Origin: Candidatus Shapirobacteria bacterium
GTDB lineage: Bacteria; Patescibacteriota; Microgenomatia; UBA12405
Direction: 5' to 3'
Assembly (NCBI GenBank): GCA_041659325.1
Contig: JBAZYN010000001.1
Span: 302,819-366,818 of the forward strand
DNA length: 64,000 bases
The notes below the pieces were generated by a model. That model was not told where the DNA came from. It ran no database searches and worked only from the letters and a program-made list of their open reading frames with translations. Shown here piece after piece: positions 13,224 to 47,217 of this stretch (within the stretch, counting starts at the first letter, position 1; every line of letters begins with the position of its first letter). The translations under genes were made by a program, and so were the position numbers.

Positions 13224-13343
13224 AGATTTATTTTAGCAACAGACACTCCTTATCAAAAGTGCTCAAAATTCTACTAATTACCCTTCCTCACCAAGACCAA
13301 CCATAATTATCTGCAAGTTACGAAACATCCCGACTATTATATA

Positions 13344-31374: not shown

Positions 31375-31375
31375 A

Positions 31376-32497: not shown

Positions 32498-33432
32498 AGG
32501 TATTTCTTCCTAATGACATAATTTGGTTTCTTTCGAAGCTCACTATAAATACGCCATGTATATTCACCTATCACCCCCAGCATAATCATTATCAAGCCTC
32601 CCACAAATAAAATCGCCACCATAATCGGTGCCCACCCCGTAAAAGGTGTTTTACCGACAAACCAAGCGTAAATAATGGTTAACCCATATATAACCCCGAC
32701 AATAGAAGTGATAATGCCAGACAAAGAAATAAAACGGATGGGAAGATAAGAGGCGTCAAGAAAAGCATCCAAGAAATTTTTTAACTTTTTTGAGAAATTG
32801 TATTGCGATTTACCAATCGTTCGTTTCAGTCGAGTATAGGGGATAAAGCATGTTCGATAGCCAGTCCACAACAAATCTCCCTGAAAAGACCTATTCCGAA
32901 TATCTATTGTATTGTATTCATCCAATGGTTTTCGATCTATAAGGACATAGTCAAATCCACCTATAGGTAACTGAGGAAAAGAGAGCTTTAAAGCTCCATA
33001 TGCCAAACGGGAAAAAAATTTAGCCGCAAAAGTATCTGAACGACCCACCCGGTAACAAGCAACTATCTCTGACCCTTTCCTCCAACTTTTAATCATTTTC
33101 GGAATCATCTCCACCGGGTCCTGCATATCCGCCGAAATGTTAATGACCGCATCACCACTAGCCTCTTTTAACCCTGCGAGAATAGCTGCCATTTGACCAA
33201 AATTTCTGGTAAATGATATAGCTTTTACCCGTGAGTCTTCTTTTCTTACATTAAATATTTCTTTCAGCGAATCATCATCTGAACCATCATCAACAAAGAT
33301 AATTTCGTATTCATAACCCGCTAATGATTTTGCAAAAACTGATTTAATTTTCTCATATGTTTTGCAAATAGATCCCTCGTTGCGATATACGGCAATAACT
33401 AATGAAATTTTCATTGTTCTATCCTTTTTCAC
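32494..33432 (-). CDS. GT2 polyprenyl-phosphate sugar synthase (GtrB/ArnC/DPM-like) with two C-terminal TM helices
   Basis: ISLVIAVYRNEGSI ... IIFVDDGSDDDS ... ISADMQDP (DxD). C-terminal double TM. Confidence 0.65.
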   Translation of the reverse strand: MKKDRTMKISLVIAVYRNEGSICKTYEKIKSVFAKSLAGYEYEIIFVDDGSDDDSLKEIFNVRKEDSRVKAISFTRNFGQMAAILAGLKEASGDAVINISADMQDPVEMIPKMIKSWRKGSEIVACYRVGRSDTFAAKFFSRLAYGALKLSFPQLPIGGFDYVLIDRKPLDEYNTIDIRNRSFQGDLLWTGYRTCFIPYTRLKRTIGKSQYNFSKKLKNFLDAFLDASYLPIRFISLSGIITSIVGVIYGLTIIYAWFVGKTPFTGWAPIMVAILFVGGLIMIMLGVIGEYTWRIYSELRKKPNYVIRKKYL

Positions 33433-34159
33433 AAAGTAAAAAAATACTGGAACACAAATCCGGATACTGTTGACCTAGTTGATAACAGCCCTCTAGATAT
33501 TCCAATGAAATAATATCTGTTTTCAATAATCTATCCCATTGAAAATTGGCTAAAGCCTTAAAAAAAATACCAGAGCGATAAACCACTTTCAGCCCAGCAG
33601 TTTTTACATCTCGCTCGAGAGTGTCAAAAGTATAAGATATTTTATGCCCATGTTCCGATTCACTTTGGGTAATCGCCGTGTTATGACTTATTAGACCCAT
33701 TTTTACCGCAATTTGTCTTGAAGGAGCATTGGCATTAGGACAGACCAAAAATAGCCTCCCTCTGTCAGATAGCCATTTACTATTTATTTTTTTCAATAAG
33801 TCAACCGGAATGTCGATGTGTTCTAAAACGTGGGTTAATATAACATTATCATATTTTACCGGCAAATCAACAGTTTCAAAAAGCGAATTATATACGATTA
33901 CCTTTCCCCGTAACTTTCTTTCGGCTTCAGAAACTGCTTCATCTGAAGCTTCCACACAGGTAATATCGGTAAAATATGGAAGAAGTCTTTTAGTGAAATC
34001 ACCCTTAAAACTCCCTAGTTCGAGTACGTTACCTTTATTGAAAAAGGGGATAAATGATTTCAACATAAAAGAATGCATGACATCAAAATCAAAACTATAT
34101 ACATATTTATGACTTGGTGTATTTTTAAGCTCTTTATTATAGTCTCTTACCTTATTCAT
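33419..34159 (-). CDS. Class I SAM-dependent methyltransferase
   Basis: VLELGSFKGDFT motif I; VILTHVLEHI. Confidence 0.5.
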   Translation of the reverse strand: MNKVRDYNKELKNTPSHKYVYSFDFDVMHSFMLKSFIPFFNKGNVLELGSFKGDFTKRLLPYFTDITCVEASDEAVSEAERKLRGKVIVYNSLFETVDLPVKYDNVILTHVLEHIDIPVDLLKKINSKWLSDRGRLFLVCPNANAPSRQIAVKMGLISHNTAITQSESEHGHKISYTFDTLERDVKTAGLKVVYRSGIFFKALANFQWDRLLKTDIISLEYLEGCYQLGQQYPDLCSSIFLLCEKG

Positions 34160-34167
34160 TTTATTTA

Positions 34168-34623
34168 TTAAATATTGTCTAATGTTACCATCATCTTCAA
34201 TGAGTCGTCTTCAGTATCATACTGTCTAAAATTAAACTTTTTATACAAACTAATCGCCAAACTATTGTGTTTATTTACTTCCAACAATATTTTACAAAAC
34301 TTATTCTCTTTTACGTATTCGATACATCTTAATAATAACCCGGAGGCAATTCCTTGACCCATATACTCTCTTATTACACTCACATTTGTGATATATGCTA
34401 AATGGTTAATCTTGTCATTGATATAAGCGGCCACACACCCCACCAAAACTTTACCTGACCACGCCTCAAATCTAATTGCTTTTGCAAATAATTTTTTTGA
34501 ATACTTTTCGATATTAACTGTTTTGGATAACGAAGGGACAAAATCACCATCACATTTGACCAAATGTGAATATATCTCTTTTTCGGAAGCGGTATTAATT
34601 TCATATCTTATATTATTAGCCAT
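34168..34623 (-). CDS. GNAT-family N-acetyltransferase
   Basis: 151 aa. ITNVSVIREYMGQGIASGLL is GNAT motif A (Q/RxxGxG/A). Confidence 0.6.
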   Translation of the reverse strand: MANNIRYEINTASEKEIYSHLVKCDGDFVPSLSKTVNIEKYSKKLFAKAIRFEAWSGKVLVGCVAAYINDKINHLAYITNVSVIREYMGQGIASGLLLRCIEYVKENKFCKILLEVNKHNSLAISLYKKFNFRQYDTEDDSLKMMVTLDNI

Positions 34624-34629
34624 ATTGAA

Positions 34630-35583
34630 TTACTCCTCAAGCACAGCCATACCAAATCCACATCGTCCAAATTCATTCCCGTTATATAACAAATATATTT
34701 TGTCCCCACTTCGAAAAACATGTGGATAACACAACATGTCGCTATCCCAACCATTTCTTGAAACTTCAATACCAACTTTACTGTCATCTCTGATCCAATT
34801 GGTCAAATCCTGTGAAAAAGCATATCCAAGTCGATACCCCCTGTCTTTGTTTTCTCTAAAACCAATCGCCTCTCTATAACAAAACAACATATGGTACTGA
34901 TCATCAAAATTAATAATTGTCGGAAGTGCCTGACATTCCTGTAAATTTAATTTGTCAGGGATTAATTGCCTGCCCTCTTTTTGCCAACGAAAACCATCCT
35001 CAGAAGTTGCGTGACCAATTTTATAAATACGTTGCGGTTCTTTACCCTCTGTCTCTTTCAGCCATTTAATACCATAGATGTACCACATATGATATTTATT
35101 ATTATAGATTTGAACAAAAGGATCGCCTACCAAAAAAGGTTCATGTTGCGATGAGGTCAACACTGGACCGTCTCCTACTCTTTTAAAAGTCAGACCGTCA
35201 TCATCACTTATGGCCAAACCAATAGAAGTTTCAACTGATACAGACACCCTCCTGCTCCACCCACCGATATACCCCAATATCTTATTTTTTGTCCTTAAAA
35301 TATTTAGAGGAAAAATACCATGTTCATCAAAACAGCCTAAATTCCCAAGTTTAATTACTGTTTTTTTTGACACATTAATAATATTTGTAAAATTTTTGTC
35401 AAAATCAATAAATGAAATATGGCTCAAAAATTTACCGGTCTTGTCCTTTTCCCTAGTCGAAAAATAAATCCTCACAAAATCATCAAACAATAAAGTTTGT
35501 GGTGACTGAGCAAACTCAACACAATTATTTAATAATTTATGATCGCGGGGATCAAATATCTTCCCCAATTTTTTCCATTTCAT
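34630..35583 (-). CDS. Five-bladed beta-propeller glycosidase/phosphorylase-like protein (GH130/DUF377-like; GH43/GH32 clan also possible), paralog A
   Basis: 317 aa. About 40% identical by eye to the adjacent ORF. C-terminal ...YLLYNGNEFGRCGFGMAVLEE. Confidence 0.35.
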   Translation of the reverse strand: MKWKKLGKIFDPRDHKLLNNCVEFAQSPQTLLFDDFVRIYFSTREKDKTGKFLSHISFIDFDKNFTNIINVSKKTVIKLGNLGCFDEHGIFPLNILRTKNKILGYIGGWSRRVSVSVETSIGLAISDDDGLTFKRVGDGPVLTSSQHEPFLVGDPFVQIYNNKYHMWYIYGIKWLKETEGKEPQRIYKIGHATSEDGFRWQKEGRQLIPDKLNLQECQALPTIINFDDQYHMLFCYREAIGFRENKDRGYRLGYAFSQDLTNWIRDDSKVGIEVSRNGWDSDMLCYPHVFRSGDKIYLLYNGNEFGRCGFGMAVLEE

Positions 35584-35589
35584 ATATTT

Positions 35590-36549
35590 TTACACTTTAT
35601 ATGACTGAAGCTCTGCTAACCCAAAACCAAACCTCCCGACTTGATTTCCAAGATATAACATAAAAAGATTACCATCTAGTTCAAATACGTGGGGATAAGC
35701 AATTGACTCATCGTCCCATCCTTTTTTTGAAATGTCTATACCGACTTTGGTATCATCTCGGACCCAATCGACAAGATTATCAGAAAATGCATATCCAATG
35801 CGGTAACCTCTCCTATCACGATAATCTGTACTATACCTATAACAAAAAAACATGTGGTACTTACCTTTATAAAAAATTACATCCGGGCTAGCTTGAGCTT
35901 CATTCTCTTCCAATTTCACTTTAATTAGATCTTTGCCATGCTTCTTCCAGGTCGCTCCGTCCTTTGAAAATGCCACTCGAATTTTATACACTGGCTCTGG
36001 CTTACCGTTATCTAATATCCATTTCTTACCGGCAATATACCACAAGCACCACATATTATTATACTTTTTTATTTTTGGACCACTTATGATGTACGGTTCG
36101 TCAAGATCAAAAGATAATATCGGTCCCGGACCAAGCTTTTCAAACGTTATCCCATCGTCATAACTTATTGCTTTTCCAATAGCTACATTAAACGGCACCG
36201 ATTCACATCTTGTATAACCAGCATAATAAGCTATTATTTTTTTTCCGTCTTTTATCACCGACACCGGATAAGTTCCAAATTCATCAAAAGTACCCGTTTC
36301 TCCTAATTTTAAAATTGGTCTTTGGGATATATCAATTATTTTAAATAGATTATGCCGACTTAAATCAACATAACCGGTATAACTCACATACTGTCCATTT
36401 TCATCTCTAGGAGGTCTACAAGAAAAGTAAACTCTCACAAATTTTTCAAATATTAAAGTAGCCGGCGCTTGGGCAAATTCATGCATCCAATCCAAACCTT
36501 TATACTCTGTCGGATCAAAAACCTTCCCTAATTTTTTCCATTTAAACAT
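35590..36549 (-). CDS. Five-bladed beta-propeller glycosidase/phosphorylase-like protein, paralog B
   Basis: 319 aa tandem paralog: MFKWKKLGKVFDP..., and a GYRIGYAFS..LV.WVRDD block shared with paralog A. Confidence 0.35.
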   Translation of the reverse strand: MFKWKKLGKVFDPTEYKGLDWMHEFAQAPATLIFEKFVRVYFSCRPPRDENGQYVSYTGYVDLSRHNLFKIIDISQRPILKLGETGTFDEFGTYPVSVIKDGKKIIAYYAGYTRCESVPFNVAIGKAISYDDGITFEKLGPGPILSFDLDEPYIISGPKIKKYNNMWCLWYIAGKKWILDNGKPEPVYKIRVAFSKDGATWKKHGKDLIKVKLEENEAQASPDVIFYKGKYHMFFCYRYSTDYRDRRGYRIGYAFSDNLVDWVRDDTKVGIDISKKGWDDESIAYPHVFELDGNLFMLYLGNQVGRFGFGLAELQSYKV

Positions 36550-36565
36550 TTTCTGAGTTCACTTT

Positions 36566-37270
36566 TTACTGTAACGTAAAGTTAGAATTTAAATATTTCT
36601 TTATTTCCTCTATGGAATTAAACATCATCACATCGACAATTGATAAAAACGGAATATATTCATTCTCAAACTGCTTATAACTAAAATTACTTGTTTTTAT
36701 AAAATGTAAATCTATACCTTGTTTTTTAAATTCCTCTTTATTATATAACTCAACTCCCCCAATCGGATTTATATATATATTAGCTTTCCTAGCTTTACAA
36801 ATTGCTAATACTTTTTCTGCCGACTTAAGAGTATGATCAATCTCTACGCTAGAAGACACGATAAAAGTAGTCTTTATCTCTAAATACTCTTTTATTTTTA
36901 TCAGGGAATTATAAATAAATAGAAATAAGTTCTTTTCTTCAAACAAAACACAATTTTCTATTAACGGATACACCATTTCAAAATATGGTGCTTTTCGATA
37001 AGACTCTTTTATCCTATTTAAGAGCTTACTTTTATCCGTCACCCAAGTATCTGCCAAAAACCTGTCTTTCACATCAGAAGTATCAGGGTCTTTTCTTAGT
37101 GGAATTGTAATGTAGGAGTCCTTCCCATTTACCAAAATTCTATTACGATTAATCCATCCTTTTTTTGTATATTTGATATTATCGTAAACCACAAACTCAT
37201 CGACCGCATTGATTAACTGAAAATATCCTATATAAGGAAAGAAATATGGTTGCATAATACCTACTTTCAT
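36566..37270 (-). CDS. WbqC-like family protein (O-antigen-cluster-associated, function unknown)
   Basis: MKVGIMQPYFFPYIGYFQLINAVDEFVVYDN is the signature N-terminus of the WbqC-like family. Confidence 0.6.
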   Translation of the reverse strand: MKVGIMQPYFFPYIGYFQLINAVDEFVVYDNIKYTKKGWINRNRILVNGKDSYITIPLRKDPDTSDVKDRFLADTWVTDKSKLLNRIKESYRKAPYFEMVYPLIENCVLFEEKNLFLFIYNSLIKIKEYLEIKTTFIVSSSVEIDHTLKSAEKVLAICKARKANIYINPIGGVELYNKEEFKKQGIDLHFIKTSNFSYKQFENEYIPFLSIVDVMMFNSIEEIKKYLNSNFTLQ

Positions 37271-37470
37271 TACTATACTTTATAGCAAAAACATTTCCAC
37301 TTTGATATAACTAACATTGGCACTACTAAAGCCCGACCTTCTAAACTTCTATCTTTATAAGAGTATACTACCAATTTTTTAGGGAATTATCCGTCAATAT
37401 GTCTACAAAATCATCCCGATGTCCAAGACCAATTATACTATTATCTGCCAGTCATCGACGCTACCAATAA

Positions 37471-38430
37471 TCATTTAATTACCTCAGGTTGCTTTACAAC
37501 AATAACGATCAGATTATCCCCCTCATCCTTATCACTCAAATATACCTTTGTCTCGGATAATATTTTTCTATAATTTACTTTCATCCCTCTCATCAGCCAT
37601 TCACTCCCCAATCTGGCAACAAGGTCTTGTAATTTCGAGCTACTCCTAATCAATGAATAAACAAAAAATCTTATTTTCCCAAATAAGTTACTAGCCGGCT
37701 TCACCCTATTAGTAGAATCGACCATTAGTCTTCGATTCATTTTGTTATATGACTGCCAAATCTCATATGTCCCGAATGCCTTAACTTTTTCAAATAGTTT
37801 TCTAATTTCGTCATGATAATATTCATGTTCGTGAGGAAGAACAAATCTATATTTTCTTTTGTCATCTTTGTTAATTGCAAATAAATCCTGACAAAATTTT
37901 CTATTCGGTGTCCCGATCACCGCCACCCCACCTTCCTTCAAAACTCTGGATACTTCTTCTAAATAAAACTCAGCCTTATCTTTTGGAATATGCTCAATCA
38001 CATGCGAAGATACAACAAAATCAAAACATTTATCAGGAAAGGGTAAAATAGGACCTTGATATTGAACATATTGTACCCCTTTTTTCCCATATTGCTTTCT
38101 GGCAAAATCTATACAGGATTCTGAATAATCTACTCCGTAATAACTATAATTTTTTTGTACAGTATCTTTTACAAAAGAAATATTTCTGCCAGTACCACAT
38201 CCAAGATCCAACACAAAAGCATTGTCTTTTTTAGACCGTTCAATAATCCCTTTAAAAACAAGATATACAGGAACCGAGTTGGCATAATGTGTCAGAGGTA
38301 TTCGGTTTTCACCCGCACCCTCTTTTGCTACACCTAATGGAATCTGACCATAAGGATTTTTCTCCCCCCAGTCAATAAACTGTTTGCCTGATTTCCCTAA
38401 TTCAATTATTTTATGATCCTTTACTTTCAT
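37471..38430 (-). CDS. Class I SAM-dependent methyltransferase
   Basis: VLDLGCGTGRN motif I; VVSSHVIEHI; LKEGGVAVIGTP. Confidence 0.6.
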   Translation of the reverse strand: MKVKDHKIIELGKSGKQFIDWGEKNPYGQIPLGVAKEGAGENRIPLTHYANSVPVYLVFKGIIERSKKDNAFVLDLGCGTGRNISFVKDTVQKNYSYYGVDYSESCIDFARKQYGKKGVQYVQYQGPILPFPDKCFDFVVSSHVIEHIPKDKAEFYLEEVSRVLKEGGVAVIGTPNRKFCQDLFAINKDDKRKYRFVLPHEHEYYHDEIRKLFEKVKAFGTYEIWQSYNKMNRRLMVDSTNRVKPASNLFGKIRFFVYSLIRSSSKLQDLVARLGSEWLMRGMKVNYRKILSETKVYLSDKDEGDNLIVIVVKQPEVIK

Positions 38431-38924
38431 AATTGACCAACAAATGATAAATTTGAAATTTTTATATATTCCGTCACCACCACATTCTTTATATTATTGG
38501 GAACATAAATTATTAGTTCGCTAGGAATAGTCGGAATACTACTTAAAAATTTGATCATCGCCCCGATGTTATAAGTTTTTATCCCCGGCAAATAACCATA
38601 CTTTTTTGACAAAAAGAAAAAATATGTCATCATTCTCTTGTTGTCCAACGCCAGAGCCATATCAGCCATCTGGTTGTGTAGAATTACCCGCCCAAGCTTT
38701 TCTGATTCACTAAGCTTTAATATTTCCAGTTCACACAAAACCTTTATTCCCACGGCAAAATCCATTCTAGCCAAAAGCGGCAAAAATGGTAGATTGTTAA
38801 TCATTAGTTTTAATTTACTCATTAAATTTAATCCCAAAAAACGACTCAATATTATCCCCACCTGAGATCTGCTTGTCATTTCCCTGGCAATCAACGCCAC
38901 ATCTGGTACTATTTTTTCATTCAT
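38427..38924 (-). CDS. Hypothetical protein (165 aa), translationally coupled within operon
   Basis: ATGA and 8-bp overlaps with the flanking genes. No motif recognised. Confidence 0.3.
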   Translation of the reverse strand: MNEKIVPDVALIAREMTSRSQVGIILSRFLGLNLMSKLKLMINNLPFLPLLARMDFAVGIKVLCELEILKLSESEKLGRVILHNQMADMALALDNKRMMTYFFFLSKKYGYLPGIKTYNIGAMIKFLSSIPTIPSELIIYVPNNIKNVVVTEYIKISNLSFVGQL

Positions 38925-40824
38925 AGGATTTGTGAATAATTGATTCCGTATTTATCGCAAACTCCAAATCACTAATTAACAATTTTTTGTCATTATTTCT
39001 CACAGCCTTGACAAACAAACTATTTTCTATTGCGTACGCCTCTCCGTTTGCGTCTGGGTTAATATTAAAAACAACTGACTCCATGATTGGTTTCAGGTCA
39101 GATTCTTTTTTTACTTCGCCTTTTCCGTCGCCAACAACCCACAACACTCTACCGTCAGTTTTTATTTCTCCTCGCTCAAATTCTATTATTAATTTACTTT
39201 CGGCGATCCATTTTCCCGGTACTGACCAAGATAAATTGGCTTCGCCCTTGAAAACTCCATAATCCAAAATTACTCTGGCCTCATCGTCAACCTCCTCCGA
39301 ATAGATTTTTTTGACTTGTGCATTTACAATTTTTGGCACACCAAAAAGAAAGTTTACTATAGAAAATAAATGTGGCCCGGGATTCATCAGCACTCCTCCT
39401 CCTGACTTGGCCTTTTCAAACATCCAACCTTTTTTTGGAGAAAGCACCTCACCATGCTCATAACTTATCAAAAATTTCTTTACTTTTCCCAATTTTTCAC
39501 TGTCAACAATTCTTTTTATCTCTTTGTAAACTCTGGTATGTACCAGGGTATAACCTACCGATATAATCTTGTTGTATTTTTTTTCCAACATTCTTAATTT
39601 TTTCAACTCCCCAACGTTAAGCGCTGCCGGTTTTTCCACAAACACGTTAACTCCTTTTGACAAACATTTTTCTATTAACTTCACATGTGTAAACGTTGGA
39701 GTTAAAACCCAGACCATATCTAATCTTTCTTGCTTTAATGCCTCGTCAATATCCTGATAATAATTCCCCTCAATTCCCATACTTTGAATCGTCTTAAATA
39801 ACTTTGGATTGTTATCAACTAAGGCTAGAATTTTGACTTCTTCAAATGTTTTTAAAATAGACAAATGCAATAAACCCATTTTCCCCAGACCAACCACTCC
39901 AACCTTTAATTTATTATCACCAAAAACTATTGCCAAACCCTCCTTTATCCCAACCGTCTTTATCCCGGATTCGCGAATAATCGGCCGGGAGTCACATATG
40001 ATTTCTTGTGTTGACCCCAGTACATTGTCAATATAAAAAGGGGGATTTTTCATCTTTAAAAACTCAAACACTCTACCGGCCACAATTCCCACCCATACGG
40101 GGATGTGCAATAAGGTTACCTTCTTTCCCTTGTGGCTCATTAACAGCTTGTAAAAATAATTATAACTAATTGGTTTTACCGATCCTGCATCGTATATTTT
40201 GCCATCACCATTGGCAAAGAGCCATTCAACATATTTACACAAGTCTTTCACATAAACCGAATACACCTGAGTTTCACCATCACCAAACACAGGAACCACA
40301 GGCAAAGAAGACATTAACTTCATTATTTTCCCCACCAACCCCTTTTCCCCCTCGCCATACACCAAACTTGGCCTTAAAATTGAATATTTTATTCCGGATC
40401 TTTTTACAATTTCATCTGCCAATAGCTTCGTTTTTGAATACACCCCTTTTCTTTTTATTTTTGTTGCCTGGGTACTAAAGTGAATCAGCTTTGCTATCTG
40501 TCTTTCTTTTCCCGCCTTTATGATATTTTCTAAACCTTTTACATTTACTTCATAGCTCAAGGTCGGATGATAGCCATTTACTGCCAAATTAACCACAATG
40601 CTTTTTTGGGGAATTGCTTTTTTTAAAGAACCCAAATCCAAAACATCCGCATAATCCACCTTTAGAGATCCTTTTAAGTCAAACCCGGGGAGAGATCCTC
40701 GTCTGATCAACGCCACCACCTCGTAACCGCTACCGGCCAAGTAATTAACTAAATGCTGGCCGATAAAACCATTGGCCCCTATTACACAAATTTTACTTTT
40801 TATCACAGTTATAAATTCTAGCAA
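38917..40824 (-). CDS. Fusion protein: N-terminal NAD-dependent epimerase/dehydratase (SDR) plus C-terminal Gfo/Idh/MocA-family oxidoreductase
   Basis: N-terminal VIGANGFIGQHLVNYL is an SDR Rossmann motif. From about residue 310, KVGVVGLGKMGLLHLSIL is the Gfo/Idh/MocA N-terminal Rossmann motif, followed by an EKP motif (VFVEKP). 635 aa. Confidence 0.6.
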   Translation of the reverse strand: MLEFITVIKSKICVIGANGFIGQHLVNYLAGSGYEVVALIRRGSLPGFDLKGSLKVDYADVLDLGSLKKAIPQKSIVVNLAVNGYHPTLSYEVNVKGLENIIKAGKERQIAKLIHFSTQATKIKRKGVYSKTKLLADEIVKRSGIKYSILRPSLVYGEGEKGLVGKIMKLMSSLPVVPVFGDGETQVYSVYVKDLCKYVEWLFANGDGKIYDAGSVKPISYNYFYKLLMSHKGKKVTLLHIPVWVGIVAGRVFEFLKMKNPPFYIDNVLGSTQEIICDSRPIIRESGIKTVGIKEGLAIVFGDNKLKVGVVGLGKMGLLHLSILKTFEEVKILALVDNNPKLFKTIQSMGIEGNYYQDIDEALKQERLDMVWVLTPTFTHVKLIEKCLSKGVNVFVEKPAALNVGELKKLRMLEKKYNKIISVGYTLVHTRVYKEIKRIVDSEKLGKVKKFLISYEHGEVLSPKKGWMFEKAKSGGGVLMNPGPHLFSIVNFLFGVPKIVNAQVKKIYSEEVDDEARVILDYGVFKGEANLSWSVPGKWIAESKLIIEFERGEIKTDGRVLWVVGDGKGEVKKESDLKPIMESVVFNINPDANGEAYAIENSLFVKAVRNNDKKLLISDLEFAINTESIIHKSYE

Positions 40825-40847
40825 TCATTAATCCTTTTAGCCACATT

Positions 40848-41183
40848 CTAGAACCTTTTCCGACCTATTGCTAACTTTCTCACTAATTTCTCCAACTGCT
40901 CCTCATATTTTTTCATTTTTACATTATTTTCAAAAGTTAAATATGCCAAAATCATAAACGCCACAATTACCGCCAAATCCATTACCCTCACTATAAAAAG
41001 TTCTCTTATCAACGGTTCTAAAAGCTGTGGAAACAATGCAAAAAAAGAAAACATAAGCCAAATCAGTGCCCAGGAACCAAACATCCGGTTTGAAATATTT
41101 CTCTTTTTCCAATGCAGCAACAGCACATACATCATAAAAAAAGCAAAACCAAGCAAAACTAATTGAACACCGATTATATTCAT
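40848..41183 (-). CDS. DUF2304-like small membrane protein (GT2-associated)
   Basis: 111 aa, 3-4 TM helices, charged C-terminal coiled segment. Lies immediately downstream of a soluble GT2, as is typical for DUF2304. Confidence 0.45.
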   Translation of the reverse strand: MNIIGVQLVLLGFAFFMMYVLLLHWKKRNISNRMFGSWALIWLMFSFFALFPQLLEPLIRELFIVRVMDLAVIVAFMILAYLTFENNVKMKKYEEQLEKLVRKLAIGRKRF

Positions 41184-41208
41184 AAGTTAGTTATCAAGTT
41201 ATAACTTT

Positions 41209-41880
41209 CTACTTTCTCACATACCAAAAGGGGATATTAAAAAGAATTTTTAACGCATCTAGAATCGTAACCCCTTTGTATTTATCAATGTAGATTGTAT
41301 CAACATTTATTTCAGAAAATGGTATCTTATTTTTTCCCACCCGAGTCGCCATTTCCGTCTCTATCCCGTATCGGGGTGACTGCCACAAAATCTTTTCATA
41401 AACCTCTTTTTTCATTCCTAAAAACCCACACAATAAATCTTTTCTTTTGATATTAAACAAAAACTCGACCAACTTTAAAGCTATAATATTTCCGTATTTT
41501 CTGATAAAGGGCATCTTGCTGTTAAAACTACGATAACCAAAAACCAACTCGTTTGCCCGCAACGATTTTTCAAAATCCGACAGATGCGCTGGATTGTGTT
41601 GACCATCGGCGTCAATATAGATTATTGCTTCTGCCCCCAATTGCCAGGCTTTCTCCGCTCCGGTTTTCATCGCCGCCCCTTTCCCCAAATTAATCACATG
41701 ACGAAGTAGTGTGACCCTCTTTTTATTAGAATAATTTTTTTTCAACAAACTCCATGAATTATCAACGGATCCATCGTCTACCACTACCAAATTTTGCTCT
41801 GATAATTTCAGAATTTCTTTGATTGTGTTAACCGCCCTCTGCCCCTCATTATAAACCGGAACAATTATCGCTATTTTCAT
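41209..41880 (-). CDS. GT2 polyprenyl-phosphate glycosyltransferase-like (DPM1/ArnC-like, soluble)
   Basis: IAIIVPVYNEGQRA ... VVVDDGSVDNS ... IDADGQH (DxD). 223 aa. Confidence 0.6.
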   Translation of the reverse strand: MKIAIIVPVYNEGQRAVNTIKEILKLSEQNLVVVDDGSVDNSWSLLKKNYSNKKRVTLLRHVINLGKGAAMKTGAEKAWQLGAEAIIYIDADGQHNPAHLSDFEKSLRANELVFGYRSFNSKMPFIRKYGNIIALKLVEFLFNIKRKDLLCGFLGMKKEVYEKILWQSPRYGIETEMATRVGKNKIPFSEINVDTIYIDKYKGVTILDALKILFNIPFWYVRK

Positions 41881-41913
41881 TTTTTGTTATTTTACAACAA
41901 TAACATCTCCAGA

Positions 41914-43320
41914 TTACTTTCTGATCTCCTCCAGATACTCGGCTTCGTTATTTACCAAATTCAAATCATAAATATTTTTCCCGGCAACGAAATTTTTGGC
42001 CGCCAAAATTCCCGTATAGATCGAGTGATCCAAATTATTATAATGAAACATCCCGTTTCTGCCTACTAGCTGGACATTCTTCAGATGCTTTTTTGCATAC
42101 CCATAAATATCCTCTAAGGGTTTTACATAACTCAAATCATACTTCGGATAAGCCCCGGGTATCCAATATACCTTGCTACCCAAAATGTCACTCATTTTTA
42201 CCCCCTTCGGAGCAAAGTATTTTAGAAAATCGGATATGGTTGTCTCGACCAGTTCATTATCAGACATTTTTTCAATTTCATCACCCTTTTGGTACGGATA
42301 TTCAAAAACTAAACTTGTTTTGCCCGGCGGAGACATAGCAGGGGACCAGTTATTGGTTTCCATAAAACGGAAGGTTTTTATATTTTTTGGATGGACATAA
42401 ACCCAGGTAAAATTGGTCAAACGCTTGCCTTTTGCAAAAAGTACCACTATTTTTTGGTCAATATACCGTAACTTGCCGGCTCCGATATCAGTAAAGTTTG
42501 CCATAAATTTATCAAGCGGAATGGAAGATATAACATGTTTTGCCAAATATTGCCCTCTGGAGGTTTTGATTACATATTTGTCTCCCTGTTTTTTTATTTT
42601 TAAAAAGTCCTCGCCTAAACTTATCTTGCCCCTTCGAACCCTGATTCTTTCCGCCAATTTTTCACTTATCCGACCTGCTCCCATTTTTGGATATTTAAAT
42701 TCCGGTACCAAGGAGATAACCTTGTTGCGATTAAAACCCAAAGCATTCGTCAGAGCCGTCACCATTGACAAATTTTTCACCCTTTGATTTACAAAATCAG
42801 CCGACATTGTCTCGCAACCATTTTCCCCCCAAAGCTTGTCGTTGTATTCCCGGTTAAACCACTTGTACAACCCCCATCCAAATCTCGATACATAAGCATC
42901 TTTCATAGTAATAATTTTTCTTTTATAAAACACGGACCTTATTTTTTCCCATAAATATGTTAAAAACATATAGAAAGTTTTTGTCGGACTGATATTTTTG
43001 ACCACATCGGAAATCCTGATAGGATATTCAAAAAATTTACCGAATTGATACATCGGAGTAAGCTTTTTTACCGTAATCATTTCTTTGCCAATTAACTCAG
43101 TTAACCATTTGTTTAGCTCTTCATTTTTTGTATACCAGCGGTGTGGTGCCAAATCATAGTTATAGCCACCTTCCCTGATAGTTGCTGCCAATCCACCAAC
43201 ATACTTATTTTTTTCCAACACCAACAATTTTGTTTTTGGCAAGTCTCTCAAAATTTCGTCGGCGCACGACAGTCCGGCCACTCCGGCTCCAAGAATTAAA
43301 ACATCATAACTTTCGGCCAT
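41914..43320 (-). CDS. FAD/NAD(P)-binding flavoenzyme, UDP-galactopyranose mutase (Glf)-like
   Basis: YDVLILGAGVAGLSCA dinucleotide-binding motif. VGGLAAT; FFEYPI; YNDKLWG resembles the Glf YxKKQWG block. 468 aa. Confidence 0.45.
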   Translation of the reverse strand: MAESYDVLILGAGVAGLSCADEILRDLPKTKLLVLEKNKYVGGLAATIREGGYNYDLAPHRWYTKNEELNKWLTELIGKEMITVKKLTPMYQFGKFFEYPIRISDVVKNISPTKTFYMFLTYLWEKIRSVFYKRKIITMKDAYVSRFGWGLYKWFNREYNDKLWGENGCETMSADFVNQRVKNLSMVTALTNALGFNRNKVISLVPEFKYPKMGAGRISEKLAERIRVRRGKISLGEDFLKIKKQGDKYVIKTSRGQYLAKHVISSIPLDKFMANFTDIGAGKLRYIDQKIVVLFAKGKRLTNFTWVYVHPKNIKTFRFMETNNWSPAMSPPGKTSLVFEYPYQKGDEIEKMSDNELVETTISDFLKYFAPKGVKMSDILGSKVYWIPGAYPKYDLSYVKPLEDIYGYAKKHLKNVQLVGRNGMFHYNNLDHSIYTGILAAKNFVAGKNIYDLNLVNNEAEYLEEIRK

Positions 43321-43325
43321 ATCAC

Positions 43326-43691
43326 TTATCTATTTAGAACATATACTCCGACAAAAATCAACAACACTCCGGCAATTTTTTGAATACTAATTACCTCATG
43401 AAAGGCTATTGTACCGACAAGTAAGGTAACGACATAAGTCACAGCCAGAGAAGGATAAGCCACCGATACCGGAAATTTCTGCAATACAAACAGCCACATT
43501 ATCGAAGATAACCCATAAAAAACAAATCCTAGAAAAACCACCGGACTGAAAATTGTTTTAAAAATTGAGGCAATATCAAAAGTCAGACTCGATGAAGTAA
43601 TTCCTTTTTTCAAAAAGAATTGACCCAACAATGCCCCAATCATTGACATAGCCATAAACAAATACCTCACCATATGTTCAAAGCATAACAC
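43326..43691 (-). CDS. SMR/EamA-like 4-TM small membrane protein (ArnE/F- or GtrA-like lipid-linked sugar translocase candidate)
   Basis: 121 aa, four hydrophobic helices. Confidence 0.4.
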   Translation of the reverse strand: MLCFEHMVRYLFMAMSMIGALLGQFFLKKGITSSSLTFDIASIFKTIFSPVVFLGFVFYGLSSIMWLFVLQKFPVSVAYPSLAVTYVVTLLVGTIAFHEVISIQKIAGVLLIFVGVYVLNR

Positions 43692-43701
43692 AAGCTTTAT
43701 T

Positions 43702-45297
43702 CTAAAACTCCATCATCTTTTGGCCAAATATCTCCTGCCATTTTTCTTGGTTGAATTTTACTAAACCTATTTCCCTGTCATTCATCAAATCAGAAAAACA
43801 TTTTTTATCGCTAAATTGCAAACATCCATATATTTTATCTTCTAAATCAAATAAATTTTGGGGCTGATAACTACCATAACCATTGTAAAGATAACAACCG
43901 TGATACAAAGACGACAAGTGTATCCGAGTTAGATAATCAATTCCGGCGATTGCTCCACCCGAATAGCCAAAATGAGTCACGGGTATCTCGAGAAGCACCT
44001 TTTTTTCTGCTTGGCATACTTCTTTTATTTCTTCATACCCAGTTTTATAATCTCTTGCTTCCGATGCAAAAAATGGTAGTGATTCGGCCAGGAATATAAC
44101 TACCAAAATCAACCAGACACGACTGCTCTTGATTTTTTTCAATCCTTCAAGGGCAAAAAATGTCAGTCCAAAATATAATAGAAAATTCCACCTGGCCATG
44201 GCTCGAATCGAATCAGCGAAAGGAAAATACCGCCCAATTAGCACATACAGAGTTGGTACTCCGTAAACCCTCGTCCCCAACGAATTTACCAATCCCAAAA
44301 TCATTATTATCAAAAAAAATAATCGCTTTTTATCAAAGACGAAATTTATCTTTATTTTTTTATTCAGGGCAATCTTTACCAGTCCCGCCAACGCCAGCAA
44401 AGACAGAACTATACCGGGAAATTTCCCTTTCTCTCCCTGAACATGCAAATCAAAAGAATTCCATCTTTTCGTTATCGATGTTTTACCAAATATGGTTGGG
44501 GAATCGGTTGTAAAAAAATAGTCTGTTAAATGGGCCGCATACATTTCATATTCCGCCCGGTTTCGGACAAAGCCATACATATTTTTCATGCCTATATATC
44601 CACCGATAAATACCCCATCAAGCATCAAAAATACTAAGACTACTATCAAAAAGTCCTTAACTTTCCCATGTTTCAGCAGCGCCGAAATCGCCAGAGCTAC
44701 AAGTAAGTACACCACCAAATATACTGATGCCAAAAATTGAACCGCCAAAGCTACCCCAACCAGCACCCTCTTGTCTTTAAACCAAAAGTACAATGCCAAG
44801 AAAAACGGCCAGAATGAAAGCATTTGCGGATGGTTTTGTTGCAAAACCAAAAATGGCCCAAATATAAAAAAAATAGCTCCCAAAAATGCCAAAATATGTG
44901 TTTTAAAAATCAGCTTCCAAAAAATAAACAAAGACCAGTAATTTAAAATGAGTGTCAAAAGCAATACTAAATTAAAAACTAAAATTGGATTGTTTGTAAA
45001 AAAAGTTAAAGGTAAAGCAGTTAATGACTGGGGGATCAGTAAATCAGAAAAGAACAACGATAATTTATTTGGATAAAAAGCGTTCGTTTCAAAAAATTCG
45101 GTGACATTTCCGCTTTTGATATGCCCGATATTCTGAAACATTACCCATATCAGATACGGAGGATCGGACCAACTGACCAGATTAGTACCTATATGAATTA
45201 TCAAATCCCAATAACTAGCCGTTAATAGTCCCAAAAATACCAAAAAAAACCCAAAACTATTTATCGATCCCAACCTTTGGGATGACCTTTGTACCAT
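43702..45297 (-). CDS. GT-C-type polytopic membrane glycosyltransferase (ArnT/PMT-like)
   Basis: 531 aa. At least 10 TM helices, with loops in the N-terminal third. Confidence 0.4.
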   Translation of the reverse strand: MVQRSSQRLGSINSFGFFLVFLGLLTASYWDLIIHIGTNLVSWSDPPYLIWVMFQNIGHIKSGNVTEFFETNAFYPNKLSLFFSDLLIPQSLTALPLTFFTNNPILVFNLVLLLTLILNYWSLFIFWKLIFKTHILAFLGAIFFIFGPFLVLQQNHPQMLSFWPFFLALYFWFKDKRVLVGVALAVQFLASVYLVVYLLVALAISALLKHGKVKDFLIVVLVFLMLDGVFIGGYIGMKNMYGFVRNRAEYEMYAAHLTDYFFTTDSPTIFGKTSITKRWNSFDLHVQGEKGKFPGIVLSLLALAGLVKIALNKKIKINFVFDKKRLFFLIIMILGLVNSLGTRVYGVPTLYVLIGRYFPFADSIRAMARWNFLLYFGLTFFALEGLKKIKSSRVWLILVVIFLAESLPFFASEARDYKTGYEEIKEVCQAEKKVLLEIPVTHFGYSGGAIAGIDYLTRIHLSSLYHGCYLYNGYGSYQPQNLFDLEDKIYGCLQFSDKKCFSDLMNDREIGLVKFNQEKWQEIFGQKMMEF

Positions 45298-46265
45298 TTT
45301 ATGAGTGATTCTACACTATCCTTGACCGTCCTCTTTGGTACCCAACCCAAAAGCTCAGTTGCCCGACTAATATCGGCATACACCTCAGCATATTCACCTT
45401 TTCGTGTCTCACCACTGCCCACCGGAAATTTTATACCCGTTAACTCCTGTACTTGATTTACAATCTCCAAAACCGAATTCCCGCTTCCGGTTCCAAGATT
45501 AATCGTGGTGCTTTCTTTGCCTTCCTGCAAATATTTCAATGCCGCCAAGTGCGCCTCGACCAAATCGATTACGTTAATATAATCTCTAATCGGTGTCCCA
45601 TCTCTGGTATTAACTTTTGGGCAAGTAAGCTTAAAAGGTTCTATCCCCAAAGCACCCCGTACCACATTTTGGATCAACAACTGTGATGGTTTTTTACTAT
45701 CTCCGATCAATCCGTCTTCAGCTGTTCCCGAAACATTAAAATATCGAAAGATCACATAATTCAATCCATGGATTTCTCCAAACCACCGCAGCATTTTTTC
45801 CACTAACAACTTTGACTCACCATAGGGATTGGCCGGAGAGGTCGGATGCTTTTCGTCCATTGGTAAATATTTGCTTTCTCCGCATACGGCACAAGTTGAA
45901 GAAAATACTATATTTTTTACTCCGGTAGCTACCATTGCTTTTAGCAAGCTCAAACTTCCGCCAACATTATTTTCAAAATACAGCTCCGGTTTCTCCATTG
46001 ACTCATTCACCAAACACAACGCTCCGAAGTGGAGTATCCCTTCGGGTTTTGTTTCCAGAAGAATTTTTTCTATGGCCGGATAATCTCTTAAATCTGCTTT
46101 ATAAAAACACAGTTTATGTTGTCCGTATTTTTCCTGAAGTATTTCTACTGGCTGCATATATCCCCTGAATAAATTATCCACAATCCCCACTTCATATCCG
46201 TTTTCCAACAACAACTTTACCGCATGTGACCCGATATAACCGGCTCCTCCTGTTACTAAAATCAT
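45261..46265 (-). CDS. galE: UDP-glucose 4-epimerase (GalE-like SDR)
   Basis: MILVTGGAGYIGSH; catalytic S..YxxxK block (PYGESK). 334 aa. Confidence 0.75.
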   Translation of the reverse strand: MILVTGGAGYIGSHAVKLLLENGYEVGIVDNLFRGYMQPVEILQEKYGQHKLCFYKADLRDYPAIEKILLETKPEGILHFGALCLVNESMEKPELYFENNVGGSLSLLKAMVATGVKNIVFSSTCAVCGESKYLPMDEKHPTSPANPYGESKLLVEKMLRWFGEIHGLNYVIFRYFNVSGTAEDGLIGDSKKPSQLLIQNVVRGALGIEPFKLTCPKVNTRDGTPIRDYINVIDLVEAHLAALKYLQEGKESTTINLGTGSGNSVLEIVNQVQELTGIKFPVGSGETRKGEYAEVYADISRATELLGWVPKRTVKDSVESLIKWYKGHPKGWDR

Positions 46266-46266
46266 T

Positions 46267-47217
46267 TTATTTATCCTCCGACTTTAAATTACTAATTAAA
46301 ATCATCACTCCGCCAATAAGGGCGCACAGCACTCCGATTATACCGCTATAGGTGGACACCAGCAAAATTTTTTCGCTTGGTATCCCAATTTGGGAAAAGA
46401 AATAAACAAAAAGTCCCTCCCGTGGGCCAAAACCAGCAATCGATATCGGCAAAGCAATAATCAAATTGATAATCGGCACAAAAATAAAAATCGGAATTAA
46501 CCCGATTCCGGCATCAAAAATCAAACTATATAGCCAATAAGCAATAGTCCAAATCGGTTCCCATAAAAAGGAAAATAAAAGCACTTTAAAGACTCTATTT
46601 TTATTTTCTTTTTTCAAAACTATCATTAGCTCAAAAACTTTTTTCAACACAGCAACTTTGCCCACAAATTTTTCAAAATCAAAAAAGAATACTAATATAT
46701 AAAACAAACAAAACCCCACAAATAATATTATAAAAAACCAAAAAAGTGCGTCCGGAAACTGATACCCCAAAAGCTTTCCGACAATTACCACAATAAATGC
46801 CATAGCTGAAAAGGCAGACATCCCGATCATCCTATCTAGCAATACCGAGCTCATTAGCCGGGTTTTTGAAAGATTCGGATACCGCTTCATCAGCGGCATC
46901 CACTTAACCAAATCTCCTCCTATTGTCGAGGCCAAAAAAATACTATAAAAATTTCCAATATATGACGCCTTTGTAAACTCCCAGATATCTTTAAACCTAG
47001 GTTTATCGAGTAAAAGCATGCTCCATCTCCACGACCATAAAATATTTCCAAACAAAAAATATACCAAAATCGACAGAGTTGCCCACACCGGCACACCGGC
47101 GATTTTGACCAATATACCCACCATATCCACCCTTTTGAAGGCAATAAAAATCAAAACGGCAGAAAAGACTACCCGAAAAACTTTTGAAAAGAATATTTTC
47201 TTTAACGTATCCTTCAC
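46267..47217 (-). CDS. Flippase-like membrane protein (lysylphosphatidylglycerol-synthase TM region / UPF0104 family)
   Basis: 316 aa, 8 TM helices, GFGPREG motif. GTG start at 47217. Confidence 0.45.
   Translation of the reverse strand: MKDTLKKIFFSKVFRVVFSAVLIFIAFKRVDMVGILVKIAGVPVWATLSILVYFLFGNILWSWRWSMLLLDKPRFKDIWEFTKASYIGNFYSIFLASTIGGDLVKWMPLMKRYPNLSKTRLMSSVLLDRMIGMSAFSAMAFIVVIVGKLLGYQFPDALFWFFIILFVGFCLFYILVFFFDFEKFVGKVAVLKKVFELMIVLKKENKNRVFKVLLFSFLWEPIWTIAYWLYSLIFDAGIGLIPIFIFVPIINLIIALPISIAGFGPREGLFVYFFSQIGIPSEKILLVSTYSGIIGVLCALIGGVMILISNLKSEDK

Follow-up and report, generated by a model that had tools for sequence, protein, structure and literature searches.

A 64,000-nucleotide stretch of contig JBAZYN010000001.1 from Candidatus Shapirobacteria bacterium (assembly GCA_041659325.1; positions 302,819 to 366,818 of the forward strand), hereafter the window, carries a block of five minus-strand genes at 45297..40848 that surrounds a 468-amino-acid (aa) flavoprotein. 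Based on profile searches, a structural model, and an active-site comparison, we identify this flavoprotein as a homolog of the eukaryote-type UDP-galactopyranose mutase (UGM) and a predicted nucleoside diphosphate (NDP)-sugar pyranose/furanose mutase. Its neighbors encode a putative polyprenyl-phosphate glycosyltransferase of family 2 (GT2), a DUF2304 membrane protein, a small candidate translocase, and a predicted GT-C membrane transferase. The stretch 47217..40848, which takes in two more genes upstream of the block, is best explained as one operon for extracytoplasmic glycosylation via a polyprenyl-phosphate-linked sugar, supplied with a furanose. It is likely that the three-component lipid-linked module (GT2 with DUF2304, small translocase, and GT-C) and the NDP-sugar furanose mutase act together. 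The full chain, in which a polyprenyl-phosphate-linked furanose is the donor, is a serious possibility that stops somewhat short of probable.

Family, fold, and active site of the flavoprotein

The flavoprotein (43320..41914, minus strand) is the third gene of the block in transcription order. It matches the Pfam families Amino_oxidase (61.8 bits; cutoff 19.8) and NAD_binding_8 (43 bits; cutoff 21.9), and its sequence places it as a divergent member of the PRK07208 family of FAD enzymes, fused relatives of which score 420–680 bits. Public annotations name it "protoporphyrinogen oxidase" or "FAD-dependent oxidoreductase." When the single sequence was compared with PDB sequences, the UGMs of Aspergillus fumigatus and Trypanosoma cruzi ranked first (~1e-11) and aligned over nearly the full length. 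With a profile of 35 homologs, eukaryotic UGMs matched at E ~3e-32 across positions 6–455, whereas bacterial UGMs matched at ~1e-19 over the first 170 residues only. Matches of the same profile to protoporphyrinogen oxidase (PPO), L-amino-acid oxidase (LAAO), CrtI, and LSD1 were confined to the Rossmann N-terminus of about 80 residues.

The structural model agrees with the profile searches. The AlphaFold2 (AF2) model has a predicted local distance difference test score (pLDDT) of 88.7 and a predicted template-modeling score (pTM) of 0.88, and its top 34 Foldseek matches are all UGMs from A. fumigatus or T. cruzi, with query-normalized template-modeling scores (TMq) of 0.80–0.84. Below these come PPO (0.68–0.76) and bacterial UGMs (0.63–0.65). 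The window protein shares with the eukaryotic enzymes (A. fumigatus PDB 3ute and 3uka; T. cruzi PDB 4dsg) a three-domain fold over its full length, including the FAD Rossmann domain, although sequence identity is only about 19–20% and the eukaryotic enzymes are longer (480–510 aa).

A preliminary description of the block, made from the sequence alone, had called the flavoenzyme Glf-like, quoted the motifs GAGVAGL and YNDKLWG, and suggested structure prediction of 41914–43320 as a check against an unrelated oxidase. Both motifs are present: GAGVAGL (residues 11–17) is the GxGxxG motif of the FAD Rossmann domain, and YNDKLWG (residues 159–165) corresponds to the Y162...W167 segment of the A. fumigatus enzyme (AfUGM). 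The region models as a eukaryotic UGM in both the Foldseek and the profile comparison. The UGM likeness therefore stands on profile, fold, and active site, but the resemblance is to the eukaryotic type rather than to the bacterial Glf of the preliminary description. We rejected a classical bacterial Glf, with which only the N-terminal 170 residues align; the score on the Glf model TIGR00031 falls far below its cutoff, and the pattern at Trp315/Tyr317 is eukaryotic. Pfam GLF, which like TIGR00031 is built on bacterial Glf, gave no match to the window flavoprotein and weak PF03275 matches to some of its homologs.

To compare active sites, we mapped AfUGM positions through HMMER alignments onto the columns of a 35-sequence family alignment, using the 20 UGM active-site positions and roles tabulated by van Straaten et al. 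(Table 2; PMC3322874). About 16 of the 20 are identical or conservatively replaced in the family. Invariant in all 35 sequences are the His-loop histidine (H63 in AfUGM; H60 in the window protein), the two essential arginines (R182/R180 and R327/R318), F158 (F155), W167 (W164), R447 (R421), N457 (N429), and the diphosphate tyrosines Y317 (Y308), Y419 (Y391), and Y453 (Y427). The diphosphate tyrosine Y162 (Y159) is kept in 33 of 35, and E373 (E340) is invariant. Replacements are conservative at F66 (Y/F63) and R91 (R/K86). N163 is retained in the window protein as N160 where the family consensus is Ser, and Q458 corresponds to M/L430, with Met as in prokaryotic UGMs. Outside Table 2, Y104, which stacks on the uracil in AfUGM (PMC3322874), is conserved as Y99 in 35/35.

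W315 (W306; 35/35) and Y317 form a eukaryote-specific pair, at which prokaryotic UGMs have Thr/Val and Asn, and the R327A variant of AfUGM is inactive (PMC3322874). As far as sequence can tell, the protein retains the catalytic machinery of a nucleotide-sugar pyranose/furanose mutase, along with its contacts to diphosphate and UMP.

The public annotations raise another reading, that the flavoprotein is a redox enzyme of the amine-oxidase/PPO superfamily, which might work with a short-chain dehydrogenase/reductase (SDR) as a two-step epimerase like DprE1/DprE2, or might modify the polyprenol. The Amino_oxidase match fits this reading, PPO structures are the next-best fold matches (0.73–0.76), and an SDR is the commonest upstream neighbor of the family and is sometimes fused to it. 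We nevertheless consider a redox role very unlikely. The likeness to PPO, LAAO, and CrtI is limited to the Rossmann N-terminus (PDB matches to PPO cover residues 2–79 only, and TIGR00562, the PPO model, scores 43.5 bits against a cutoff of 97.85, again at the N-terminus only), whereas UGMs align over the full length and the UGM-specific catalytic residues, including the equivalent of R327, are invariant. An unrelated oxidase such as PPO, an amine oxidase, or CrtI was rejected as an identity on the same grounds. DprE1 has a different fold, of the vanillyl-alcohol oxidase (VAO) type, while the window protein has the GR2/UGM fold, so that only the adjacency to an SDR is analogous.

Genes flanking the flavoprotein

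All five open reading frames (ORFs) of the block were confirmed, on the minus strand. In transcription order they encode the GT-C candidate (531 aa; 45297..43702), a small membrane protein (121 aa; 43691..43326), the flavoprotein, a soluble GT2 (223 aa; 41880..41209), and a DUF2304 protein (111 aa; 41183..40848), separated by gaps of 10, 5, 33, and 25 nt. GalE (334 aa; 46265..45261) lies directly upstream, and before it an LPG_synthase_TM or "flippase-like domain" protein (316 aa; 47217..46267) with eight transmembrane (TM) segments opens a co-directional run of about 19 kb (47217..28411). A scan for promoters and terminators gave no signal above shuffled expectation between members of the block; because such matches are no commoner than in shuffled sequence, they neither split nor define it. 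The preliminary description had proposed five consecutive co-directional genes immediately downstream of galE, which would encode, besides the flavoenzyme, a soluble DPM1/ArnC-like GT2, its DUF2304 membrane partner, an SMR/ArnE-like small protein, and a GT-C transferase. The genes stand at the coordinates it gave, and the family assignments below agree with it for each of them, marginally so for the small protein.

The 334-aa protein is, by its matches, a bona fide UDP-glucose 4-epimerase: it exceeds the TIGR01179 cutoff (336 bits against 262.3), and its top 33 matches among PDB sequences are all UDP-Glc/Gal 4-epimerases (best 2c20, 9.5e-74).

The GT2 matches PF00535 with 80 bits and has no predicted TM helix. 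Its best NCBIfam matches are PpgS (70.2 bits; cutoff 370), AglJ, and others, all below cutoff. A DxDxQ motif, DADGQ, occupies residues 90–94; this motif has been proposed as a hallmark of GT2s that load polyprenyl phosphate, such as DPMS, GtrB, GacI, and WpsA (PMC10821137). We built two hidden Markov models (HMMs) from comparison loci, one for DADGQ GT2s next to DUF2304 and one for the other GT2 type, and the window GT2 scored 171.5 bits on the first and 45.7 on the second. Its partner, 25 nt downstream, is a DUF2304 protein with three TM segments (PF10066, 61.9 bits; cutoff 25.5). The DUF2304 proteins GacJ, WpsB, and Rv3632 bind and strongly activate GacI, WpsA, and PpgS, respectively, whose products are GlcNAc-P-Und, GlcNAc-P-C55, and the polyprenyl-P-GalNAc donor N-acetylgalactosaminyl-phosphate-undecaprenol (bioRxiv 10.1101/180810, PMC10821137). 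We thus predict that the window GT2 is a polyprenyl-phosphate glycosyltransferase of the GacI/WpsA/PpgS kind and that the DUF2304 protein is an activator and membrane anchor of the GacJ/WpsB/Rv3632 type.

The 531-aa protein has no match in Pfam, NCBIfam, or PDB sequences. Its homologs carry PF19830/DUF6311, and it falls outside the named GT-C families PMT_2, ArnT, and YfhO. The AF2 model (pLDDT 87.6) matches only GT-C enzymes among its top 14 Foldseek results, at probabilities of 0.89–1.0 and TM-scores of only 0.31–0.49; these include DPY19, AglB, PglB, ALG9, Pmt4, ArnT, ALG12, and AftB. GT-C enzymes usually have their catalytic aspartates in the long loop that joins TM1 to TM2, and in this family D45 (33/34) and D85 (31/34) are conserved between the predicted TM1 (residues 9–27) and TM2 (residues 105–123). 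The model points to an extracytoplasmic transferase with a GT-C fold, related to DUF6311, that would use a lipid-linked donor. The longest ORF shares 37 nt with the end of galE (45261–45297), and the gene call of the Joint Genome Institute (JGI), at 479 aa, would drop TM1 and the conserved W43/D45 region. Since this N-terminus is conserved in the family, the JGI call is too short. The ortholog at locus L088 has 503 aa, which leaves the exact start uncertain, with conservation favoring the longer ORF.

The 121-aa protein just passes the EamA cutoff (28.3 bits against 28.2), and its best NCBIfam matches, ArnF (46.4 bits; cutoff 99) and ArnE (43.2 bits; cutoff 92), stay below theirs, as does SMR, the small multidrug resistance family (16.9 bits; cutoff 23.7). 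A crude Kyte-Doolittle scan finds three to four TM segments, and four are expected from EamA/SMR homology. ArnE and ArnF are paired subunits, and the block has one small gene; a homodimer is possible. We regard the protein as a candidate polyprenyl-P-sugar translocase, a membrane partner of the mutase, or both. Accepted small translocators of polyprenyl-P-monosaccharides are ArnE/F, GtrA, and GtcA, while the role of Rv3789 is contested (PMC12992685).

A second candidate translocase of lipid-linked sugars is the LPG_synthase_TM protein (PF03706, 102.7 bits against 33.4; TIGR00374, weak match), whose gene lies outside the coordinates of the preliminary description. Three relatives (L006, L087, and L088) show it in synteny with galE and the mutase gene, and in the family representative P0181 the same domain is fused to a UGM-like domain; the module therefore probably starts at 47217.

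Relatives of the block and its wider setting

Conservation of the five genes as a unit was another check named in the preliminary description, and here the outcome is divided: parts of the block recur among relatives, but the exact block does not, and its conservation as a unit is rejected. In the closest relative (L090; mutase 76% identical), genes for the GT-C (65% identical at the C-terminus), mutase, GT2 (223 aa), DUF2304, and a radical SAM protein are contiguous, with no small gene between GT-C and mutase. L088 (GT-C 67% identical) keeps the order LPG_synthase_TM–GalE–GT-C–mutase, after which comes a toxin-antitoxin pair of the AbiE type. This DUF6922/AbiEii pair (L088 10957–11851) stands where the window has GT2–DUF2304, which suggests a recent rearrangement at that junction. 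L006 and L087 share the arrangement LPG_synthase_TM–GalE–(PMT_2, on the other strand)–LAB_N–mutase, and in L001 the mutase has none of these partners. L089 lacks a mutase; it encodes a DUF6311 GT-C in translational coupling with a GT2 of 245 aa, and an EamA protein of 107 aa is encoded nearby. By its gene content, this locus is an ordinary three-component module.

None of the relatives examined has an SMR-like gene in the position that it occupies in the window. The slot directly upstream of the mutase is instead filled by GtrA (12 of 78 loci) or by LAB_N (PF07578) proteins of 85–90 aa, which we observed in four Shapirobacteria-like relatives (L006 7742–8011; L087 6564–6830; L091 4507–4764; L092 335–607). 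The shared position of LAB_N, the SMR-like protein of the window, and GtrA elsewhere hints that LAB_N belongs to the same functional class.

The mutase family itself is widespread. Among GTDB representative genomes, 361 stretches encode relatives of the flavoprotein, in lineages that include the candidate phyla radiation (CPR), Chloroflexota, Syntrophomonas, Planctomycetota, Zixibacteria, Omnitrophota, Altiarchaeota, and others, and a HMMER search of 1.84 billion cluster representatives yielded 2,743 clusters (50% identity) at E <= 1e-30. Single-sequence phmmer proved too insensitive beyond Microgenomates and was replaced by Pfam scans of neighbors and iterative HMMs. By Pfam, the gene directly upstream of the mutase (78 loci) is most often an SDR epimerase (19), followed by GtrA (12 loci, as noted above), GT2 (6), and PMT_2 (6); directly downstream (81 loci) are GT2 (18), PMT_2 (6), and PTPS_related (4). 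Local HMMs and a crude TM count were applied to the 62 loci that extend 3 kb or more beyond the mutase in both directions. Within 5 kb of the mutase, 39 of them have a large polytopic membrane protein, 29 a GT2, 25 an SDR, and 13 GtrA or another small TM protein.

Two recurrent arrangements stand out. In the Gottesmanbacteria-type loci, several GT-C genes precede an SDR gene that overlaps the mutase gene, which is followed 3–80 nt away by a GT2 of about 250 aa and another GT-C. Only 2 of 23 of these mutase-adjacent GT2s have a strict DxDxQ; their consensus is HPDYQ, with the metal-binding Asp and Gln kept. The one tested (L012) has PpgS, AglJ, and a Dol-P-hexose transferase as its best NCBIfam matches. 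Given that an HPDYQ protein still finds polyprenyl-P sugar synthases as its best matches, the DxDxQ motif alone is not decisive in Gottesmanbacteria. GT2s adjoining the mutase upstream in Altiarchaeota (L060), Chloroflexota (L023), and L046 match the same class, plus ArnC and PgfS.

In the Syntrophomonas/Planctomycetota-type loci, the order is GalE (404 bits on TIGR01179)–GtrA–mutase–600-aa protein, with no GT2 within 5 kb. The protein of about 600 aa, with 13–14 TM segments, follows or faces the mutase gene in L032, L035, L039, L041, L064, L076, L083, and L086 (~11340–13300 in each). Pfam, a profile comparison with the PDB, and hhalign against the DUF6311 alignment returned nothing significant for it. 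Its N-terminal DTD...R...W motif alone suggests that it may be an undescribed GT-C-like family.

Fusions tie the mutase to its neighbors within single polypeptides. Of the 149 best cluster representatives, 17 reach 560 aa or more. The UGM-like domain is joined to an SDR epimerase in P0195, an RmlD-like SDR in P0291, a GFO/IDH/MocA enzyme in P0235, a GT2 in P0218, and both a GT2 and a PMT_2 GT-C in the 1,409-aa P0224. Membrane partners are a C-terminal GtrA (P0176, P0192, P0305), LPG_synthase_TM (P0181), and a 10-TM region with a weak EamA match that precedes the UGM-like domain (P0212); other long representatives have TM extensions that belong to no assigned family. In these fusions, each of the functional classes around the mutase in the window is physically joined to it: SDR/GFO, GT2, GT-C, drug/metabolite transporter (DMT)/GtrA-type, and LPG_synthase_TM. 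The fusions to SDR, RmlD-like, and GFO enzymes argue for an NDP-sugar as substrate.

This linkage bears on the idea that the five genes are mere neighbors in a large glycan-biosynthesis island and serve no common pathway. The exact block is, as described above, not conserved, and the island mixes many independent glycosyltransferase and sugar-modification genes, both of which would suit that idea. We find it highly improbable, since gaps of 5–33 nt suggest co-transcription and the same functional classes surround the mutase in distant phyla and are fused to it.

The setting of the block is indeed rich in glycan genes. The whole 64-kb window is a dense glycosyltransferase island, with at least seven further GT2-like ORFs detected by HMM, and GT4 genes. 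Directly after the DUF2304 gene lies a 635-aa fusion of an SDR epimerase and a GFO/IDH/MocA enzyme (40824..38917, minus strand; Pfam Epimerase at residues 12–214, GFO_IDH_MocA at residues 306–554). Its domains suggest a sugar-nucleotide modification pathway, and we treat it as context and only a candidate member of the module. The fusion begins a probable amino-sugar pathway that fills the rest of the run (28411–40824, minus strand). Also encoded there are a 165-aa ORF with no match, three methyltransferases, WbqC, GNAT, GT2, a DegT aminotransferase, two tandem proteins with weak Glyco_hydro_32N matches (34630–36549), and a 737-aa protein with no Pfam match.

Three further features of the window are recorded here. 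Rfam gave no match anywhere in it. GC skew is negative in all 2-kb windows of 1–64000 (cumulative −7.16), both where genes lie on the plus strand (1–28 and 47–63 kb) and where they lie on the minus strand (28–47 kb); because its sign is independent of gene strand, it is the replication strand, and not the coding strand, that the bias follows. At the upstream end of the run, the LPG_synthase_TM gene, with a GTG start, and a divergent plus-strand GT4 gene, with a TTG start, share 34 nt in their longest ORFs (47184–47217), and the true starts of both are probably further in, leaving a short divergent promoter region.

A proposed route to a lipid-linked furanose

The analysis establishes a family or fold for each protein, the retention of the UGM active site, and the repeated linkage, by neighborhood and by fusion, of the mutase family to SDR enzymes, GT2s, GtrA-type proteins, and GT-C proteins; which substrates are used, in what order the steps run, which sugar the lipid carries, and what accepts it are inferred. 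In the route that we propose, GalE would supply UDP-galactopyranose (UDP-Galp), and the flavoenzyme would contract the ring of the nucleotide sugar, most likely turning UDP-Galp into UDP-galactofuranose (UDP-Galf). The GT2, held at the membrane and activated by DUF2304, would then move the sugar from the nucleotide to polyprenyl phosphate. The 121-aa EamA/ArnE/F-like protein, possibly with the LPG_synthase_TM-like protein, would flip the lipid-linked sugar outward, and the DUF6311-type GT-C would pass it to a cell-surface acceptor. In the version that we prefer, the furanose itself is loaded on the lipid, as polyprenyl-P-Galf, and the GT2 would pull an unfavorable mutase equilibrium. The preliminary description had proposed the same order, from UDP-Galf to polyprenyl-P-Galf, flipping, and GT-C transfer, with which the wider neighborhood and the fusions are consistent; a documented alternative, the lactococcal scheme considered below, suits them just as well.

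Four observations favor a lipid-loaded furanose. The only GT-A enzyme in the core of the operon is of the polyprenyl-P type. The closest relative, L090, keeps GT-C, mutase, GT2, and DUF2304 contiguous. DPM1-like GT2s adjoin the mutase in other phyla, and in Gottesmanbacteria-type loci the reading frames overlap or nearly abut. Finally, small translocators of the monosaccharide type adjoin the mutase or are fused to it.

Several results weigh against this reading. On the side of the enzyme, the best NCBIfam match of the flavoprotein, PRK07208.1-4 "hypothetical protein" (NF005548), stays below its cutoff (345 bits against 389), TIGR00031 reaches 38.7 bits against 303.75 over the N-terminal 180 residues only, and no characterized activity of a PRK07208-family enzyme was found in the searchable literature. 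Two AfUGM residues are not kept: Q107, which hydrogen-bonds the uracil (K/R/E/Q in the family), and N207, near O4 of Gal and in the flap region, where model confidence and alignment are weakest. Their loss, a difference from the eukaryotic enzymes along with the Met/Leu at Q458, means that the nucleotide and sugar may differ from UDP-Gal. On the side of the neighborhood, iterative HMMs found the SMR-like gene and the DUF6311 GT-C absent beside the mutase in 82 comparison loci (L001–L086, duplicates excluded), although in separate look-ups the DUF6311 GT-C adjoins the mutase in L088 and L090; the SMR-like gene does not. Neighbor counts are raw and carry no background frequency, and about one fifth of the loci have none of these partners. 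In the Gottesmanbacteria-type loci, the pair of DADGQ-GT2 and DUF2304 lies 4–8 kb from the mutase and is not its direct neighbor, and the GT2 that does adjoin the mutase is a different one, with no clear ortholog in the window. The GT2 domains in the P0218 and P0224 fusions are Leloir-like, with EpsD and MftF as best matches, and not DPM1-like, so that some lineages probably take the furanose straight from the nucleotide. All three characterized pairs of GT2 and DUF2304 use UDP-HexNAc, not a furanose (bioRxiv 10.1101/180810, PMC10821137).

The last of these points lies at the heart of an alternative modeled on the lactococcal polysaccharide pellicle (PSP). Here the GT2 and DUF2304 would make HexNAc-P-polyprenol, either as the donor for the GT-C or as a primer for Leloir extension, and the mutase would feed soluble UDP-Galf to a Leloir glycosyltransferase elsewhere in the island, with no lipid-linked furanose monosaccharide. 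The characterized pairs, which take UDP-GlcNAc or UDP-GalNAc, are in line with it, as is Lactococcus cremoris itself, where WpsA/WpsB, Glf, a flippase, and GT-C enzymes serve one pathway and a cytoplasmic glycosyltransferase adds Galf from UDP-Galf. It would also account for the Leloir-like GT2s fused to the mutase and for the separation of DADGQ-GT2/DUF2304 from the mutase–GT2 unit in Gottesmanbacteria-type loci, and the window holds the further GT2-like ORFs, GT4 genes, and an amino-sugar pathway (SDR-GFO, DegT, GNAT, WbqC, methyltransferases). The core of the operon, on the other hand, has no Leloir glycosyltransferase, the DxDxQ GT2 being the sole GT-A enzyme between GalE and SDR-GFO. Oligosaccharide-lipids are usually flipped by Wzx-type proteins, whereas here small 4-TM, GtrA, or LAB_N partners abut the mutase or are fused to it, and mutase-adjacent GT2s in other phyla resemble Dol-P/Und-P sugar synthases. 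On this balance, we judge the PSP-like scheme somewhat less likely than a lipid-loaded furanose, and a rival to be taken seriously.

The close association of the mutase with membrane proteins could also mean that it acts on the lipid, converting polyprenyl-P-Galp to polyprenyl-P-Galf at the membrane while docked to its small partner, with flipping to remove the product. GtrA, EamA-like, and LPG_synthase_TM proteins are fused to the mutase or encoded immediately upstream of it with no GT2 between, and the Syntrophomonas-type arrangement of GalE, GtrA, mutase, and 600-aa protein dispenses with a GT2 within 5 kb. The phosphate-binding arginines and tyrosines would suit a monophosphate too, and such a step would be the hexose counterpart of the lipid-level conversion of decaprenyl-phosphoryl ribose (DPR) to decaprenyl-phosphoryl arabinose (DPA). 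Yet the UMP-contact residues Y99, F155, Y159, and W164 are invariant or nearly so, which is unexpected for a lipid substrate, and the enzymes fused to the mutase (SDR, RmlD-like, GFO) act on nucleotide sugars. A UGM that acts on a lipid-linked sugar has no precedent, and a GtrA partner might serve to anchor the enzyme to the membrane and not to flip the sugar; the role of Rv3789 is contested. We consider a lipid-level mutase improbable.

The preferred route, with polyprenyl-P-Galf as donor, resembles several known systems in part. The load, flip, and transfer logic is that of the Arn pathway (ArnC, ArnE/ArnF, ArnT) and of GtrA-GtrB-GtrX of phages and Shigella. The window differs from both in that its single small gene scores below the equivalog cutoffs, its GT2 has DUF2304 in place of the C-terminal TM helices of ArnC/GtrB, and its GT-C comes from a different family (DUF6311). 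GacI/GacJ/GacK/GacL of Streptococcus pyogenes, a side-chain system based on GlcNAc-P-Und, and PpgS/Rv3632/Rv3779 of Mycobacterium tuberculosis likewise combine a DxDxQ GT2 and a 3-TM DUF2304 protein with a translocase and a GT-C. These systems load HexNAc and have no mutase, GacK is Wzx-like and not a 4-TM protein, and the window GT2 reaches only 70 bits on the PpgS model against its cutoff of 370. The lactococcal PSP (WpsA/WpsB, Glf, WpsG, and the GT-C WpsJ) comes close in its set of functions, with GT2 and DUF2304, UDP-Galf mutase, flippase, and GT-C in one pathway; unlike the window, it has a classical bacterial Glf and a Wzx-like flippase, and a Leloir glycosyltransferase adds Galf to GlcNAc-P-C55.

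Chemical parallels are found in pentofuranose systems, in which a furanose is delivered outside the membrane through a polyprenyl-monophosphate donor and GT-C enzymes, and auxiliary enzymes set the sugar: mycobacterial decaprenyl-P-arabinofuranose (DprE1/E2, Rv3789, Aft/Emb) and Citrobacter polyprenyl-P-ribofuranose (PMC11127046). In these, the furanose comes from phosphoribosyl pyrophosphate (PRPP) via a phosphoribosyltransferase and is modified at the lipid level, and not from a nucleotide hexose by a flavin mutase and a GT2; the polyprenyl-P-ribofuranose paper makes no mention of galactofuranose or a mutase (PMC11127046). For a lipid-linked hexofuranose (Galf) monosaccharide donor, we found no report in the searchable literature. 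In all routes known to us, hexofuranoses are incorporated from UDP-Galf by Leloir enzymes on the cytoplasmic or Golgi side.

The components are thus known separately: three-component systems, GacI/GacJ-type pairs, GalE, and UGM have each been described, and lipid-linked furanose donors are known for pentoses. What we add is a prokaryotic branch, mis-annotated so far, of the eukaryote-type UGM lineage, recognized by profile and model and placed within lipid-linked/GT-C modules, together with a proposed chemistry. By extension, it is conceivable, though less than probable, that a hexofuranose on polyprenyl phosphate, for example polyprenyl-P-galactofuranose, is the extracytoplasmic donor made by many bacteria that are uncultivated, and by some archaea; the NDP-sugar would pass through the eukaryote-type UGM branch and a DPM1-like GT2, then a 4-TM, GtrA, or LAB_N flippase, to a GT-C. 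Mammals lack galactofuranose and other hexofuranoses, which serve as drug and vaccine targets.

If the proposal is right, it would add a new branch to glycan assembly, with a donor that is to hexoses what decaprenyl-P-arabinofuranose and polyprenyl-P-ribofuranose are to pentoses, and would extend the three-component concept, recently demonstrated for pentofuranoses. Apart from that, a flavoprotein family of ~2,700 clusters, labeled at present "FAD-dependent oxidoreductase" or "protoporphyrinogen oxidase," now has a function that can be tested. Many prokaryotic proteins prove to be relatives of the "eukaryotic-type" UGM architecture; they are often membrane-bound through fusion to GtrA or other TM segments, which bears on the debate over whether GtrA is a flippase or an anchor. 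For CPR bacteria, whose metabolism is minimal, the module would offer a first view of how the cell envelope is decorated.

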